Shown here: positions 19,855 to 28,322 of the stretch, piece after piece
Position numbering within the stretch: the first letter of the stretch is position 1
How the letters are laid out: each line of letters begins with the position of its first letter
Assembly (NCBI GenBank): GCA_963740085.1
Contig: CAVUCU010000004.1
Location: 1 to 64,000 of the forward strand
Length of the DNA stretch: 64,000 bases
Direction of reading: 5' to 3'
DNA from: Nitrospirota bacterium
Lineage (GTDB): Bacteria > Nitrospirota > UBA9217
Made by a program: the position numbers and the translations under genes
Notes under the pieces: generated by a model
Seen by the model: only the letters and a program-made list of their open reading frames with translations
What the model was told of the DNA's origin: nothing
The model's database searches: none

Positions 19855-20319
19855 ATGAACAGGGCAGCGAGAGCGGTCATCCTTTTTATTTCGCAGGGCG
19901 CCTACGCGGGGAGATTCCCGGTCGCCCCCGGCACGGCAGGGACGGTTGTCGGGGTGTTTCTCTACCTCGGGATGAAGGGCCTGCATCCCGGGCAGTATCT
20001 TGCCGTTTGTGTCTTTGTAATCCTTGCAGGGATGTGGACCGCCGGCCGCGCGGAGATCATCCTTGGCCGCAAGGACAGCCCCTCGATCGTGATCGATGAG
20101 ATCGCCGGTTTTCTTACAGCAATGTTCATGGTCCCGTCCGGCTGGTCCTTTATTGGCGCCGGTTTTCTGCTCTTCAGAGTGTTCGACATACTGAAACCCT
20201 GGCCCCTCAGGCGATTAGAGTCACTGCACGGCGGCCCTGGCGTGATGCTCGACGACATCGGGGCCGGCGTGTATGCGAATATCGTGCTCCAGATCGCGGC
20301 ATTTCTTATCTCCCGATGA
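19855..20319 (+). CDS. pgpA: Phosphatidylglycerophosphatase A
   Basis: PVAPGTAGT, KDSPSIVIDEIAG, FRVFDILKPWP, GVMLDDIGAG. Confidence 0.95.
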   Translation: MNRAARAVILFISQGAYAGRFPVAPGTAGTVVGVFLYLGMKGLHPGQYLAVCVFVILAGMWTAGRAEIILGRKDSPSIVIDEIAGFLTAMFMVPSGWSFIGAGFLLFRVFDILKPWPLRRLESLHGGPGVMLDDIGAGVYANIVLQIAAFLISR

Positions 20320-21158
20320 ACCAAATAACCGAAGAGACCTTTGAACAGACCCTCCGGTCCTTCATCCGCTCGGAACAGATCGATCTCCGAGACGTTTCCT
20401 TCATTGATCCTTACGGCATGCTGGGGCTCCTCGAGATCGGCGAGCTTTGCATGCTCGAAGACGTGAAAAAAACCATCACGCTCCCGCAGTCCGGCGAGGT
20501 ATGCGCGTATCTCGAACGGATGGATTTTTTCACCCACGCAAGCCGTTATTTTTCCCTCGATCACTCTTTGTGCCAAACTGCCAATCAAAAAAGTCGCAGC
20601 CCGGAATCGGATGTGCTTCTCGAGATCACGCCTATCGAACGTTCGAACGACATCCACGCTATCGTCGGCACGGTGAGAGACCGCGCACAGGCTATCCTCG
20701 CGACCCATCTGCACTATGACGACCGGGCGATCAACAGCTTCATCGTAGCGCTCTCCGAAGTTTGCCAGAACATCATCGAGCATAGTGAGAACAAGGGGTT
20801 CGTGGGCATCCAGAAATACCGGTTCCAGAGCATGAATAAGAACGTCGTCAAGATCGCGGTCATGGACGTGGGCATCGGGTTCCGAAAGTCCCTGTCAGGT
20901 CGTTTCAAGCTGCGAAGCGATCTCGACGCTATCGACAAGGCCCTGCTTCACGGCGCATCCCGGTACGAGGACGAGGGCAGGGGACACGGCCTGGCCGCGG
21001 TGCGCCGGTTCGTTGAGCAATGGCAGGGCAAGCTTTCCATCCGCTCGGGAACTGCGCGGCTCGCAATTATCCCGACCTGGTCACGCGGCAGGGAACAGGA
21101 GCGAAATCTTACCAGTTTCCCCGGAGCTCAAATCAATATCCTTCTACCAGAAGTATAA
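20316..21158 (+). CDS. STAS-like plus GHKL anti-sigma-type kinase (CapK-like)
   Basis: N-terminal IDLRDVSFIDPYGMLGL; ALSEVCQNIIEHS, IAVMDVGIGF, GRGHGL, FPGAQINILLP; ATGA overlap with pgpA. Confidence 0.8.
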   Translation: MNQITEETFEQTLRSFIRSEQIDLRDVSFIDPYGMLGLLEIGELCMLEDVKKTITLPQSGEVCAYLERMDFFTHASRYFSLDHSLCQTANQKSRSPESDVLLEITPIERSNDIHAIVGTVRDRAQAILATHLHYDDRAINSFIVALSEVCQNIIEHSENKGFVGIQKYRFQSMNKNVVKIAVMDVGIGFRKSLSGRFKLRSDLDAIDKALLHGASRYEDEGRGHGLAAVRRFVEQWQGKLSIRSGTARLAIIPTWSRGREQERNLTSFPGAQINILLPEV

Positions 21159-21192
21159 TTTTGCCACAGCCTCTCCTTTGATTTCTCAGTAG

Positions 21193-21397
21193 CCTCTCCC
21201 TTGACGGGAGAGGTTGGTGAGGGTGAATCGCCGGCTCCTGATTATCCGAATGTTCGTCATTCCCGCGAAGGCGGGAATCCATCCTGTTTATTCTTTAAAT
21301 TTCCCCTTGACAAATCCATCCATTTATGGTTCAATTGATTCAATTGAAGTTAATGTCTTTGCTCCCGACCCCATCGGGAGAGGGCTGGGGCGAGGGG
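21193..21397. repeat. Cluster of small palindromic repeats
   Basis: cctctccc-N5-gggagagg (21193-21213), ATTCCC-N8-GGGAAT (21259-21278), ctcccga-N5-tcgggag (21362-21380). Confidence 0.7.
21307..21348 (+). promoter_or_regulatory. TTGACA followed by a 19-bp near-palindrome, candidate promoter/operator
   Basis: TTGACA at 21307; TTCAATTGATTCAATTGAA at 21330-21348 covers the expected -10 position. Confidence 0.45.
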
Positions 21398-21425
21398 AGA
21401 TTTCTCTTTTGCAATTGGGCTGGAG

Positions 21426-21971
21426 ATGGCCGTGATGAAACAAATAGTAACTACGAACATAATTGAGAGCAAGATATATCTTATCCACGGCCAGAGAGTG
21501 ATGCTCGACAATGATCTTGCTGAGCTCTACGAAGTACCGACAAAGGCCCTTGTGCAAGCAGTAAAGAGGAATATAAAACGTTTCCCTAAAGATTTTATGT
21601 TTCAAATGGAAAATCAAGACGTTATAAACTTGAGGTCACAATCTGTGACCTCAAGTTTGGGGTATGGTGGAAGAAGGTATCTCCCGTATGCTTTCACAGA
21701 ACAAGGCGTTGCCATGCTCTCAAGCGTGCTTAACAGCGATCGCGCGATAGAAGTCAATATCCTCATCATGCGCGCTTTTGTTAAGCTCCGGGAAATGATC
21801 GCATCTCACAAGGACCTGGCGCGAAAGCTCGATGAGCTTGAAAAGAAATATGATGGCCAGTTCCAGATCGTGTTCGAGGCTATTCGACAGCTTATGGCGA
21901 TTGAGGAAAAGCCCAAACGGAAGATCGGGTTCCTGGCCAAGGAAAGCCGGGCAACCTACAAAACAATGTAG
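21426..21971 (+). CDS. ORF6N domain DNA-binding protein
   Basis: [27 protein letters not shown]...[32 protein letters not shown]. Confidence 0.92.
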
Positions 21972-21974
21972 TCG

Positions 21975-26504: not shown

Positions 26505-26517
26505 GAGCCAGGTGAGT

Positions 26518-26585
26518 GACGAGAAACGAGGGACGCAAAATCGTCCATCGTCCCAGCGAACGCAGTGAGCGGTCGCCTGTCGTCC
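26518..26585. repeat. GACGAGR-type heptamer inverted repeat (also ~27154-27200, 38941-39020, 39324-39397, 56266-56328)
   Basis: gacgaga aacgagg gacg ... cgtccat cgtccca ... gagcggtcg; related copies in other intergenic regions. Confidence 0.65.
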
Positions 26586-26595
26586 ATTAATTTTC

Positions 26596-27153
26596 ATGAG
26601 ACTGTTCATCGCCATAGAGATCCCGGACGAGATCAAGACAGAATTGGTCAAGGTCCAGGAACAGCTCAGAAAAGCGAGGGTAGACGCAAGCTGGACGCGC
26701 GCGGAGGGCATGCATCTGACCCTGAAATTTCTGGGTGAAATCCCGGAGACGAAGGTTCCGGAGATCGTAACCGGTCTGCAAAAAGCCGCGGAAGGGATCG
26801 GCCGGTTCCCGCTTGAAGTCAAAGGGGTCGGAACGTTCCCGAATCCGCGGAACGCCAGGGTGGTGTGGATCGGACTTTCAGGAGAGATCGGAAAGCTGTC
26901 AAAACTGCAGGAAGCCGTTGAAGAGGCAATGGACCGCATCGGTTTGGCGCGTGAGGACCGGAAATTTACCGCGCACCTTACCCTCGGCAGGATAAAGTAT
27001 ATCCGGTCTCGCGATCAGTGGGTTGCCGTATTGGAAGAGACCAGGGACAGAGTCCTGCCGGGGTTCGAGGCAACCGCGGTCAGCCTGATGAAGAGTGAAC
27101 TCAGGCCGTCGGGCGCGGTGTATACGGAAATGGGCAGGGTGGAGTTGAAATAA
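26596..27153 (+). CDS. thpR: RNA 2',3'-cyclic phosphodiesterase
   Basis: [36 protein letters not shown]...GAVY. Confidence 0.95.
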
Positions 27154-27233
27154 ACGATAGACAAGAGACGACGGACGGGAGACGGATGCGTCCATCGTAC
27201 ATGCGACGATTCATAACTGAAAGGAGATACACA

Positions 27234-28322
27234 GTGGCGGATAAGGATAAATTGAAGGCGCTGGAACTGGCGGTGGGCCAGATCGAGAAACAATTCGGCA
27301 AGGGTTCCATCATGCGTCTGGGCAGGGAGGAGGTCCCCGCGGGGATCCCCGCGATTTCCACCGGGTCTCTGGGCCTGGACATCGCGCTCGGGGTGGGCGG
27401 TGTGCCGCGCGGCAGGATCATCGAGATCTACGGCCCCGAGTCCTCCGGCAAGACCACGCTGGCGCTCCATATCATCGCCGAGGCGCAGAAAGCGGGCGGC
27501 CAGGCCGCTTTCATTGACGCGGAGCATGCGCTTGATGTGACATACGCCCGCAAGCTTGGCGTGCGCACCGACGACCTTCTCATCTCGCAGCCCGACACGG
27601 GCGAACAGGCGCTCGAGATCACTGAAACGCTCGTGCGGAGCGGCGCTATTGACGTGATCGTCGTCGATTCCGTCGCGGCACTTACGCCCCGGGCCGAGAT
27701 CGAAGGCGAGATGGGCGATGCGCACATGGGTCTCCAGGCGAGGCTCATGAGCCAGGCGCTCAGAAAGCTCACCGGCGCGATCAGCAAGTCGGCAACGACG
27801 CTCGTCTTCATCAACCAGATCCGCATGAAGATCGGCGTGATGTTCGGAAACCCCGAGACCACTACAGGCGGCAACGCGCTCAAGTTCTACGCCTCGGTGC
27901 GGCTCGACATCCGAAAGATCGCGGCCATCAAGGAGGGCGAAGAAATGACCGGCGGGAGGGTGAGGGTCAAGGTGGTGAAGAACAAGATCGCCCCGCCGTT
28001 CCGCTCGGCCGAATTCGATATCATGTTCAACGAAGGGGTCTCGAAGATCGGAGAGATCATCGACATCGGTGTGGAGAAGAACATCGTTGAAAAAAGCGGG
28101 GCCTGGTTCTCCTACAGCGGCACGCGGATCGGCCAGGGAAGGGAGAACGTAAAACTTTTCCTGCACGATCACCCCGAGATGGCCTCTGAGATCGAGGTCA
28201 AGGTACGGCAGGCCGCCGGTCTGAACGGCTCCGTCACTTCCGCCCCGGAGAACGCGGGGGCAAGGGAGAAGGAGATCGCCCCGCCCGCTGAGAAACCGGC
28301 GAAAGCCTCGAAAGGAAAATAG
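27234..28322 (+). CDS. recA: Recombinase A
   Basis: [61 protein letters not shown] before a GTG start. Confidence 0.99.

Follow-up and report, generated by a model that had tools for sequence, protein, structure and literature searches.

A CapK/CapS-like kinase–repressor pair at the recA locus of a Nitrospirota bacterium and its relatives

The window analysed herein, a 64,000 nt stretch of contig CAVUCU010000004.1 from a Nitrospirota bacterium, carries beside recA two genes that are real and of the CapK/CapS kind. The latter system is described by Chambers et al. (EMBO J 2026, PMC13373217), in whose account such kinase/repressor pairs respond to DNA damage by turning on genes for phage defence. 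The pair considered here is a long-inherited, vertically passed chromosomal regulator and no recent passenger; sequence homology and domain folds place it there, and catalytic and acceptor residues, promoter with palindrome, and gene neighbourhoods are conserved. On balance, we think it probable that the two genes form a switch of the CapK/CapS kind, in which CapS-like repression of a promoter (P1) would be relieved by the kinase after damage, with readthrough into repair genes. The features concerned are collected in Table 1.

Table 1. Features of the recA region, in window coordinates.
Feature	Position	Strand	Remarks
Promoter-like site ahead of pgpA and kinase gene	19797..19826	+	TTGACT-18-TACAAT with TG; 10/12 matches, consensus scan only
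pgpA	19855..20319	+	PgpA E 1.3e-39; stop overlaps kinase start
CapK/VapK-like kinase gene	20316..21158	+	280 aa; STAS-like domain (FIDPYG, no Ser) and SpoIIAB-type GHKL; no N-terminal HTH
Promoter P1	21307..21335	+	-35 TTGACA 21307-21312; 17 nt spacer, TG 21327-21328; -10 TTCAAT 21330-21335
Operator candidate	21328..21350	.	Palindrome, perfect over 21330-21348; overlaps -10 and start region of P1
Low-GC insert	21352..24540	+	3.2 kb; borders approximate, set against same-genus insert-free locus L033
ORF6N gene	21426-21971		In insert; PADLOC PDC-S05, E 7e-57; defence candidate
Second ORF6N gene, frameshifted	22087-22751		In insert
Terminator-like hairpin	22758-22782		In insert
Y1 transposase-like gene	22791-23351		In insert
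Ion_trans_2 protein (channel) gene	23441-24421		In insert
capS-like STAS-wHTH gene	24578..25139	+	Open frame 24582-25139; frameshift, one extra A at 24608-24611; Ser59 (VIDYSC) of open frame
Promoter P2 before cinA	25153..25182	+	TTGACG-18-TACAAT with TG; conserved GGCCAAATTTCA precedes it
cinA	25227-26504	+	Conserved downstream of capS in window's family
thpR/LigT	26596-27153	+	Conserved downstream of capS in window's family
recA	27186-28322	+	Conserved downstream of capS in window's family
pilT-like ATPase gene	28544-29797	+	Continues conserved block
recX	29829-30329	+	Continues conserved block; alaS next

An earlier note on this DNA had read the product of the first gene as a STAS-like segment without the phospho-serine, followed by a SpoIIAB-type GHKL kinase, from a gene overlapping pgpA by ATGA. 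The coordinates confirm the overlap, and the domain search (HATPase_c, 3e-8, and HATPase_c_2) and fold model (pLDDT 87.5) agree with the domain reading. The top four fold matches for residues 97–280 are SpoIIAB (Z 15.0), RsbW (13.2), Rv1364c (12.9) and UsfX (12.2), and residues 1–85 resemble STAS antagonists (Z 8.3–8.7). Residues of the N-box (N152), the DxGxG motif (D184/G186/G188) and the GRGHGL motif (R222/G223/G225/L226) are invariant in 29/29 aligned proteins, as are F29, P32 and G34 of the N-terminal FIDPYG. The gene has an intact reading frame and is present as a single copy in the genome. A search of the kinase sequence against solved structures gave no match, and its product is 35–37 % identical to kinases of pairs ahead of CBASS-like genes in two same-family genomes.

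The second gene encodes, as judged by sequence, a homologue of the solved CapS. On its own, the window protein matches Vibrio cholerae CapS 9Z72 (E 4.6e-5, residues 25–177 vs 26–175), and a profile of 27 relatives run against the whole PDB sequence set retrieves only 9Z72 (1.9e-9) and 9Z71 (1.1e-6), both CapS entries (PMC13373217). A DUF4325 (STAS-like) match (E 2e-5) and a fold model of pLDDT 90.5, with a STAS fold at residues 1–115 (Z 9.0–10.1) and a wHTH at 120–185 (Z about 10–10.8), complete the picture. Numbering in the paper equals the chain index minus 2, as N145, K151 and G169–170 fall on chain N147, K153 and G171–172. On that count, S54 corresponds to the latter serine of TDSSF and S58A to the latter alanine of TDAAF, and the S of the window's IDYSC aligns with both. 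This putative phospho-acceptor is invariant in 27/27 aligned proteins, two CBASS-linked paralogues among them, and as Ser59 it stands at the start of helix 58–73 in the model. The CapK/CapS architecture proposed in the earlier note thus holds for CapS homology and for the serine; the kinase lacks the HTH domain of CapK.

With regard to regulation, a palindrome of 19–23 bp positioned after the kinase gene overlaps P1, and this layout is found in 34/39 sequences compared. P1 itself was missed by the consensus scan because its -10 has no A at position 2, and a look for RNA runs containing the stretch found none. A search of the 3.46 Mb genome with the palindrome 21-mer, allowing up to 3 mismatches, returned one site, with 0 for the backwards control. 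The published palindrome occupies the same place between kinase gene and capS, likewise overlaps the capS promoter and has half-sites one base apart (PMC13373217). Whilst the centre TTGA-T-TCAA is built like the published ‘narrow palindrome’ TTAA-a-TTAA, the half-sites here are TTGA/TCAA rather than TTAA and lie inside a longer palindrome, and the window-type CapS does not keep the DNA-contact residues N145 and K151.

In the account we favour, the CapS-like protein, as a dimer or dimer of dimers, would bind TTCAATTGA-T-TCAATTGAA over the -10 and so keep P1 repressed. P1 would serve optional cargo, then capS, and then, by read-through, the repair genes downstream, namely (pgpA-)cinA-thpR-recA in the window's family and rmuC, mutS, addAB or dinG in other Nitrospirota families. 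[quoted passage not shown] Within the window's family, P2, right after capS, may supply basal recA, with P1 adding a damage-induced increment.

The earlier note was silent on the 3.4 kb that separate the kinase gene from capS, and on the low GC of this stretch (0.445–0.48 vs 0.53–0.62 in the flanks). A terminator-like hairpin lies in the 3.2 kb between P1 and capS, and the consensus scan found the + strand from 22247 to 25153 free of sigma-70-like sites. Behind the operator, the first gene in the window and in many relatives is the defence candidate ORF6N/PDC-S05; in other families it belongs to a restriction-modification or toxin-antitoxin set, the cargo comprising N6_N4_Mtase with BglII, TdeIII, MvaI/BcnI or Mrr endonucleases, or MazE-PIN. 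Such cargo lends itself to a different explanation, that the pair is a regulator of defence genes only, governing P1, the variable cargo and capS, at what would be a tolerated insertion spot, with the repair genes mere neighbours under their own promoters. Published CapKS systems do control immune operons and often adjoin R-M systems (PMC13373217). In the window, capS is frameshifted and split from the operator by an insert led by PDC-S05, hence a defence role is conceivable there. Set against this are five loci of the window's family (L032, L033, L038, L040 and L043) that are free of cargo and read kinase gene, P1, then capS, so that only capS and the recA block stand behind P1.

Neighbourhoods in relatives bear further on this. 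The domain search agrees with the earlier note in placing cinA directly after capS in the window, followed by thpR and recA. Throughout the window's family the pair sits at the recA locus, which speaks against the recent arrival that, by the note, would have refuted its reading: cinA comes next after capS, directly or via pgpA, in 15/15 family loci with capS in the fetched DNA, recA is reached in 12 of these, and all family loci reaching far enough read kinase ... capS-(pgpA)-cinA-thpR-recA, with pgpA lying between capS and cinA in other genera of the family. Elsewhere in the phylum, other families have rmuC, mutS, addA or dinG after capS. A repair gene is among the first three same-strand ORFs in 22/30 other-family loci, and it begins within 44 bp of capS in 8/10 of the annotated ones (overlapping it in L058), a spacing too tight to hold a promoter or terminator. 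In a wider scan, the best 80 loci were scored by whichever panel gene comes first within 3.5 kb of capS; 50 have a repair gene (rmuC, 22; cinA, 11; dinG, 8; mutS, 6; addA, 3), whilst the other 30 have no panel repair gene, as the defence-only explanation would have it; related genomes in all such counts are not independent samples. In records not labelled Nitrospirota, capS is followed by a mixture of genes (Maf-YggS, DUF362, R-M and others).

The kinase was found in 85 and capS in 90 of 401 phylum genomes, and both, by comparison of the two lists, in 80. Kinase identity declines with taxonomic distance, from 77–94 % in the genus through 72–84 % in the family to 59–71 % in other families. Unlike island cargo, the pair occurs as a single copy and its distribution follows taxonomy, and chance neighbourhood offers no easy explanation for five different repair genes after capS across families. 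A purely defensive regulator is rather unlikely in our estimation. The suggestion in the earlier note of a housekeeping damage switch instead of a defence regulator gains from conservation at the recA locus and from the repair genes in sister families, but is tempered by the PDC-S05 cargo behind the operator.

The defence-only explanation also draws on P2, which occurs in 10/14 family intergenic sequences (absent from 2, with another 2 sequences incomplete). As this promoter is strong, conserved and stands between capS and cinA, recA could run independently of P1, and control of cinA-thpR-recA by the switch is uncertain for that reason. No convincing second palindrome accompanies P2, TCAATTGA being found there in one relative only (L029).

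A further possibility, which we regard as doubtful, is that the switch has decayed in the window's genome, leaving capS a pseudogene uncoupled from P1, P1 constitutively open, the kinase an orphan and recA driven from P2 alone. It arises from the frameshift, and here the earlier note, correct as to STAS domain, wHTH and the serine of VIDYSC, erred in treating 24578–25139 as one frame. Its length, 562 nt, is not divisible by 3, and the ATG at 24578 is out of phase with the open frame. The first ATG, GTG or TTG codon of the latter is the GTG at 24714, so that no ordinary start precedes residue 45. Relatives carry MIKYDLYKLLKDELG... in a single frame, with one A fewer in the corresponding run. 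Decay would also fit the terminator-like hairpin of the insert and the second ORF6N copy, which is likewise frameshifted. However, the kinase and the rest of capS are intact, the latter being 82–94 % identical to same-genus orthologues, and a single extra base in an A run is a typical assembly error. A near-identical public-run contig (216 letters, 2 differing) spans the 217 bases of 24463–24679 with one gap, and is thus one base shorter somewhere within the interval containing the run. In the assembly as it stands, the frameshift and the 3.2 kb with a hairpin after P1 may impair the switch.

Classical partner switching, in which the kinase would serve as anti-sigma factor to a sigma factor encoded elsewhere and be antagonised by the STAS protein, is very improbable: the kinase fold is closest to SpoIIAB, RsbW and UsfX, the STAS fold is like that of SpoIIAA and RsbV (Z 9.0–9.4), and a Ser begins helix 2 of the STAS domain, yet this STAS protein bears a DNA-binding wHTH as its output, CapS is its only PDB sequence match, a conserved palindrome marks the promoter between both genes, and no sigma factor gene is found among the neighbours annotated in 17–33 kb or in relatives' loci. 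The acceptor of SpoIIAA, Ser58, is the first residue after Asp; here it is the second, as in CapS.

Comparison with the published CapK/CapS (PMC13373217) places the pair in that kind, with modifications. Shared are a STAS–wHTH repressor of about 185 aa with homology across both domains, the conserved helix 2 phospho-serine, a GHKL kinase with degenerate STAS encoded upstream on the same strand and, by analogy, an expected link to DNA damage. In CapK itself, contacts with ssDNA are made by W68, K237 and K239. Adjacency of capK and capS, reported in 443/443 cases, is often broken here by 0.2–12 kb of cargo between operator and capS; single copy and a taxonomic distribution also set the present pair apart. 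Downstream of capS lie recA, rmuC, mutS, addAB or dinG rather than the CBASS, Bub or Thoeris genes given in the text of the article. VapK/VapS/VapC, from the same source, resembles the present system in its STAS–GHKL kinase without HTH and its STAS substrate with conserved Ser/Thr; it differs in that the substrate here has a wHTH instead of a short C-terminal tail, and no PIN toxin gene adjoins it in the window.

In common with the LexA/RecA SOS response, the pair would respond to ssDNA arising from damage and act on recA and further repair genes; its sensor, however, would be a kinase and not a RecA filament, with repressor release by phosphorylation and not self-cleavage. PafBC and DriD, which are WYL regulators, and DdrO/IrrE are other damage regulators independent of LexA. 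Further ssDNA-sensing examples are CapW/BrxR and CapH+CapP (PMC13373217). All would share with the present pair a regulator that senses ssDNA or damage directly without LexA; they use WYL domains or a metalloprotease, in place of which a GHKL kinase and STAS substrate are found here. In line with the earlier note, there is no GAAC-N4-GTTC box in the recA region (scanned from 19.5 to 28.4 kb), the sole match in the window being at 42658. The genome does carry lexA outside the recA region, divergent from an SRAP gene and with a box of its own (GAACGTTCGTTC) in its promoter, and so LexA independence, as the note proposed, is only consistent with the data. Fixed as it is beside recA and other repair genes, the kinase/repressor pair suggests a second, phosphorylation-based damage response in these bacteria, beside that of LexA.

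The first gene of the pair overlaps pgpA (the overlap reported in the earlier note is seen in the ORF coordinates), and its product was modelled with a pLDDT of 87.5. Residues 97–280 find their closest fold matches among anti-sigma kinases (SpoIIAB, Z 15.0; RsbW, 13.2; Rv1364c, 12.9; UsfX, 12.2), with the ATP domains of histidine kinases ranking below these (Z ≤ 10.8), whilst residues 1–85 of the model resemble STAS antagonists (Z 8.3–8.7) and bear FIDPYG at the place of SpoIIAA-type serines. The catalytic residues are kept in 29/29 aligned sequences, comprising the N-box Asn (N152), the DxGxG motif at 184–188 (D184, G186 and G188) and GRGHGL at 221–226 (R222, G223, G225 and L226). 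The proposed arrangement of a STAS-like segment devoid of the phospho-serine, followed by a SpoIIAB-type GHKL kinase, therefore holds. Alignment, model and fold comparison all show the protein to begin directly with its STAS-like domain, without an HTH, and neither the single protein nor a profile gave a sequence match to solved structures. A predicted complex of kinase, CapS-like protein and ATP scored 0.60, which is not discriminating, as one unrelated-protein control reached 0.70.

Coordinates of features at the kinase–capS locus of the window
Feature	Position	Strand	Remarks
Cpn10-like and HSDR_N_2 genes	17267–18343		5′ of kinase gene
DsrE/DrsE_2 and TusA genes	18417–19586	−	between Cpn10-like/HSDR_N_2 genes and pgpA
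pgpA	19855–20319	+	overlapped via ATGA by kinase gene
Kinase gene	20316–21158	+	280 aa; HATPase_c (3e-8), HATPase_c_2
P1 (promoter)	21307–21335		3′ of kinase gene
Candidate operator (palindrome)	21330–21348		over −10 of P1
Low-GC cargo stretch	~21352–24540		GC 0.445–0.48 vs 0.53–0.62
Tandem ORF6N genes	21426–22751		second split by frameshift (22087–22578, 22461–22751); C-terminal parts almost identical
Terminator-like hairpin	22758–22782		in cargo stretch, between P1 and capS
Genes for 186-aa and 326-aa proteins	within 22791–24421		both in low-GC insert
capS (open frame)	24582–25139		STAS–wHTH gene
P2 (promoter)	25153–25182	+	TTGACG-18-TACAAT with TG; conserved in window's family
cinA, thpR, recA, pilT-like ATPase, recX, alaS	3′ of frame ending 25139	+	in that order

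The Cpn10-like protein listed in the table matches Cpn10 (E 1.1e-24) and ends in a lysine-rich tail; its gene, paired with that for the HSDR_N_2 protein, is also found 5′ of the kinase in three other loci of the family. In two loci of another family, a Cpn10-like gene lies between kinase and operator; loci bearing this gene across both families are L029, L034, L041, L051 and L057 (L-numbers denote fetched loci). The Cpn10-like and HSDR_N_2 genes may be part of the kinase transcription unit. The neighbouring DsrE/DrsE_2 and TusA genes, together with an ORF at 18417–19160 whose translation, on reading, also has a DsrE-like end, point to a sulfur-metabolising host.

The second gene, here termed capS, had been described as a STAS domain with a retained serine, fused to a winged HTH (wHTH), at 24578–25139. 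This interval comprises 562 nt, and the frame from the ATG at 24578 stops after 38 codons; the long open frame spans 185 codons, the first ATG, GTG or TTG of which is a GTG at 24714. Thirteen orthologues have MIKYDLYKLLKDELGNGS... in a single frame of ~186 codons, and relative to these the window has one surplus A in the run 24608–24611. A short, low-depth contig from a public run, near-identical with 2 differing letters in 216, spans the 217 bases of 24463–24679 with one gap, meaning that it is one base shorter somewhere within this interval. The frameshift could be real, or could stem from an error in assembly. Split thpR, recX and alaS genes are found by tblastn in the assemblies of L027 and L033, which suggests frameshift errors in some highly contiguous assemblies of relatives, and bears on the reading of the frameshift in capS. 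Thus, the single frame of the original description does not stand, whilst the domain content, the serine and the position 5′ of cinA do.

The capS product matches DUF4325 (STAS-like; 2e-5) and was modelled with a pLDDT of 90.5. Residues 1–115 resemble SLC26A11 (Z 10.1), RsbR (9.6), RsbV (9.4) and SpoIIAA (9.0), and residues 120–185 resemble winged helices of MarR/ArsR type (Z ~10–10.8). As a single sequence it matches the V. cholerae CapS structure 9Z72 over nearly its full length (E 4.6e-5), and a profile of 27 relatives, searched against the PDB sequence set, recovers 9Z72 (1.9e-9) and 9Z71 (1.1e-6) with no other match; both entries are named as CapS by Chambers et al. (EMBO J 2026, PMC13373217). 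Foldseek comparison of the model with a PDB library extending to April 2026, in which entries 9Z71–9Z73 are not contained, returned only wHTH proteins and weak two-domain matches.

The acceptor serine of CapS is an absolutely conserved residue on STAS helix 2, S54 in E. roggenkampii and S58 in V. cholerae (PMC13373217). Numbering was fixed by N145, K151 and G169–170 of the paper, which fall on N147, K153 and G171–172 of the deposited chain in alignments; chain positions hence exceed the paper numbers by 2, so that S54 is the second S of TDSSF and S58A the second A of TDAAF. Both S54 and S58 align with the serine of IDYSC (VIDYSC in the window protein), which is kept in 27/27 aligned proteins, is preceded by Y or S, and lies at the start of helix 58–73 in the model. 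By alignment, the acceptor serine is thus conserved in the CapS-like protein, and does not lie one residue off, in line with the earlier note.

According to PMC13373217, CapK is an ssDNA-activated HTH–STAS–GHKL kinase with a catalytic conserved Asn at N218, and CapS is a STAS–wHTH repressor, phosphorylation of which at the serine breaks the dimer and frees it from two palindromes: a narrow one in the capK–capS spacer and a wide one before the immune operon. The two genes are directly consecutive in 443/443 cases, and control anti-phage operons, with a role in general stress responses left open by the authors. The pair described here shares with this system a CapS-like protein of ~185 aa with N-terminal STAS and C-terminal wHTH domains, homologous to the solved CapS, as well as the acceptor serine and the catalytic GHKL residues. 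It differs in that its kinase is without the HTH of CapK, that 3.4 kb containing several small genes separates kinase from capS, and that cinA–thpR–recA rather than an immune operon lies 3′ of capS, the defence-like genes instead being 5′ of it, behind the operator. Deletion of the HTH from CapK is reported to be without effect, and VapK, a related kinase, has none (PMC13373217); the kinase architecture here is in this respect that of VapK. The resemblance to VapKSC does not extend to the substrate, which here has a wHTH and not a short tail, and no PIN toxin gene, as vapC would be, adjoins in the window. Unlike SpoIIAB/SpoIIAA, whose kinase also serves as the anti-sigma factor of a cognate sigma factor, there is no sigma factor gene among the annotated neighbours, either here or in the loci of relatives. 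A literature search covering openly available journals and the article body of PMC13373217 returned, amongst the papers listed, none placing a CapK/CapS-type pair at recA or other repair genes.

Approximately 150 bp 3′ of the kinase stop, promoter P1 is formed by TTGACA (21307–21312), a 17-nt spacer ending TGg, and TTCAAT. The candidate operator on it reads TTCAATTGA-T-TCAATTGAA, with the centre TTGA-T-TCAA. This layout of promoter and palindrome is present in 34/39 sequences examined, from the window's own and other families, with the central base being T or A, as expected at the centre of a palindrome. Its 21-mer, at ≤3 mismatches, occurs once in the 3.46 Mb genome (backwards control, 0). 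The centre of the putative operator, with half-sites separated by a single base, is built like the published narrow palindrome, TTAA-a-TTAA, and occupies the equivalent place; the half-site differs (TTGA/TCAA vs TTAA), which is in line with the absence from the CapS-like protein of the CapS DNA-contact residues N145 and K151. The second promoter, P2, begins ~13 bp past the capS stop, leaving no space for a terminator between them. The sequences of relatives reveal no clear second palindrome at P2, with TCAATTGA present there in L029 only; a CCAA-N6-TTGA pattern over the −35 of P2 was read by eye. The window has two further TCAATTGA sites (44431 and 44597), each a single copy, with 166 bp between them and the promoter layout at neither; the total of 4 matches in the window is within chance (10/100 shuffles). 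The promoter scan called no sigma-70-like site before capS in the window.

In pairs that are not adjacent, the extra genes, or cargo, always lie between operator and capS. They include ORF6N genes (in many family members), MazE–PIN, a Ser/Thr kinase, and DNA methylases with BglII, TdeIII, MvaI/BcnI or Mrr endonucleases. No ORF6N gene is present elsewhere in the genome, and those of the window match PDC-S05, a defence candidate of PADLOC (7e-57). Further along the insert, the 186-aa protein has a weak match to IS200-like Y1 transposases (E 0.009, below cut-off), and the 326-aa protein has a C-terminal Ion_trans_2 pore domain. A reading of the insert as REP elements was dropped, since the genome has no more than 4 copies of the hairpin-like element and a single Y1 transposase-like gene.

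A recent passenger would be expected to be absent from this locus in relatives, which is not the case. In the 15/15 family loci with capS in the fetched DNA, cinA lies 3′ of it, directly or past pgpA, and recA, pilT and recX are reached in 12 of these 15; in the window's genus, pgpA is now 5′ of the kinase. Both kinase and capS are single copy in the genome. Across 401 genomes of the phylum, the kinase is found in 85, capS in 90 and both in 80 (by list comparison), with 52/63 and 51/63 genomes of the window's family carrying kinase and capS, respectively, and none in several large other families (0/76, 0/40 and 0/28). Kinase identity drops with distance, from 77–94 % in the genus through 72–84 % in the family to 59–71 % elsewhere. 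The kinase directly adjoins capS in L032, L033, L038, L040, L043 and L054, with 0.2–12 kb of cargo elsewhere. Judged by gene order and distribution, the pair is no passenger.

Second, divergent kinase–CapS pairs are present in L045 (G013:C6) and L064 (G087:C1), in two genomes of the family that also have the recA-linked pair. Identity is 35–37 % for their kinases, which are extended at the N-terminus, and 27 % for their CapS proteins, and the pairs lie 5′ of CBASS-like genes, a canonical defence context (Patatin with SMODS/DncV-like; PycTM with AGS_C, then a XamI/Eco57I R-M gene). A tblastn search of plasmids with the CBASS-linked kinase paralogue gave no useful link to enterobacterial CapK.

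In other families kinase, palindrome and capS stay linked, but without recA there. The gene after capS is instead RmuC, MutS, an AddA-like helicase-nuclease with an AddB-like partner, or a DinG-like helicase followed by RmuC. It starts ≤44 bp past the capS stop in 8/10 annotated loci (overlapping it in L058). Such repair genes are seen in 22/30 other-family loci, some of the 8 without being limited by contig ends. A wider scan with a capS alignment yielded 581 relatives, and in the best 80 of these the first same-strand gene within 3.5 kb from a panel of repair genes was rmuC in 22, cinA in 11, dinG in 8, mutS in 6 and addA in 3 (50/80), with none in 30. The latter include records titled Brocadiaceae, Scalinduaceae, Desulfobacteraceae and Nitrospinota (capS 63–73 % identical), in which Maf–YggS, DUF362, R-M, TA, topoisomerase I, a SprT-like gene and a SNF2 helicase follow capS. 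The 30-locus and 80-locus samples share members, and genomes of close kin do not count as independent; even so, the recurrence of five different repair genes at one and the same position favours a functional tie between the pair and the genes after capS. The pair is, in sum, chromosomally fixed, inherited with its lineage, and positioned at recA and at four other kinds of repair genes.

Several further features accompany these loci. A conserved protein of 92–93 aa without a Pfam match lies 3′ of rmuC in many loci, mostly followed by an O-methyltransferase (Methyltransf_2 with dimerisation domain), and directly 3′ of capS in some (L048, L054, L057, L058, L071, L079, L081, L084 and many of L111–L182). 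In L142, L150 and L160, three records under the titles Deltaproteobacteria or Thermodesulfobacteriota, the genes 3′ of capS encode, in this order, a 221–222 aa protein, Maf and a YggS-like protein (Ala_racemase_N); no family was found for the 221–222 aa protein in two of the three, with a weak SpoIIM match in one. Genes 53–73 % identical to the window's capS occur in records titled Brocadiaceae, Scalinduaceae, Planctomycetes, Desulfobacteraceae, Nitrospinota and Marinifilum (L112, L114, L129, L135, L141, L144, L146, L147, L151, L161, L166 and L183), with the kinase ~5 kb 5′ in several (L135, L141 and L161). Such identity across phyla reflects either unusually high conservation, or transfer or binning errors.

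With regard to LexA, the genome encodes one, recognised by TIGR00498 (118 bits; cut-off, 111) and Peptidase_S24. Its gene is transcribed divergently from one for an SRAP protein and has the box GAACGTTCGTTC between the −35 and −10 of the lexA promoter. This divergent pair of lexA (~1450–2046) and a YedK-like SRAP gene (678–1346) lies in L004 (G000:C7:126551–130090). PF01726 (LexA_DNA_bind) proved unspecific, giving weak hits only and ringing in archaeal controls, and TIGR00498 was used instead. The absence of GAAC-N4-GTTC at pgpA, cinA and recA was borne out by motif search, which found none in 19.5–28.4 kb of the window, nor the 14-mer of the lexA box at ≤3 mismatches. Genome-wide, GAAC-N4-GTTC gives 76 sites against 108 in the backwards control, so that the bare pattern is uninformative; of the 18 site–gene pairs that lie close to a gene start, none has a link to repair except lexA/SRAP and a RadC gene. 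Judged by the strict motif, the LexA regulon seems very small, comprising lexA/SRAP and perhaps the RadC gene at C5:266903–267613. Since the organism's own lexA-type box is missing upstream of the recA-region genes, recA shows no sign of LexA control, although absence of a motif is short of proof.

In the most probable mechanism, CapS would repress P1 via the palindrome, and the kinase, which in the window would be expressed from the pgpA promoter, would sense ssDNA and phosphorylate Ser59. P1 would then open, and transcription would run through the cargo and capS and read through into the repair genes, with P2, in the window's family, supplying basal recA and P1 adding to its output. This addition of P1 read-through to recA is the weakest step; no clear second palindrome was seen at P2. 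In the window, P1 is also far from capS, with a terminator-like hairpin in between and no sigma-70-like site called before capS. The observation of the earlier note is confirmed in part, and its interpretation is supported in part; the latter gains from the homology to CapK/CapS and the conserved recA locus, and loses from the broken frame of capS and the existence of LexA in the genome. The locus is best viewed as a CapK/CapS-type module with a VapK-like kinase architecture, chromosomally fixed, in which cargo has been inserted after the operator and repair genes lie after the repressor gene; we infer its function from homology and conserved position only.

We tentatively suggest, as a possibility rather than an expectation, that in Nitrospirota of Thermodesulfovibrionia type (with a possible extension to anammox Planctomycetota and some Desulfobacterota, whose capS is 63–73 % identical) the pair is an ancestral chromosomal damage sensor for recA, rmuC, mutS, addAB and dinG, a counterpart of SOS acting by phosphorylation beside a much reduced LexA regulon. 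The damage-inducible leader, from operator to capS, would in this case be a docking site capturing R-M, toxin–antitoxin and ORF6N genes, such that one ssDNA sensor serves both repair and immunity, with the mobile, defence-linked CapKS described in 2026 being offshoots of a housekeeping module of this kind, or the reverse. As the capS–mutS form is present in some records titled Thermodesulfovibrio (L139), cultured relatives or E. coli reporters may offer a way to test the idea. If the wiring is real, it would provide a concrete operator sequence and a serine as a mutation target, and a case in nature of a damage-inducible promoter behind which defence genes have been captured. It would also constitute a bacterial DNA-damage response of a new type, with a kinase in place of the RecA-stimulated cleavage of LexA.
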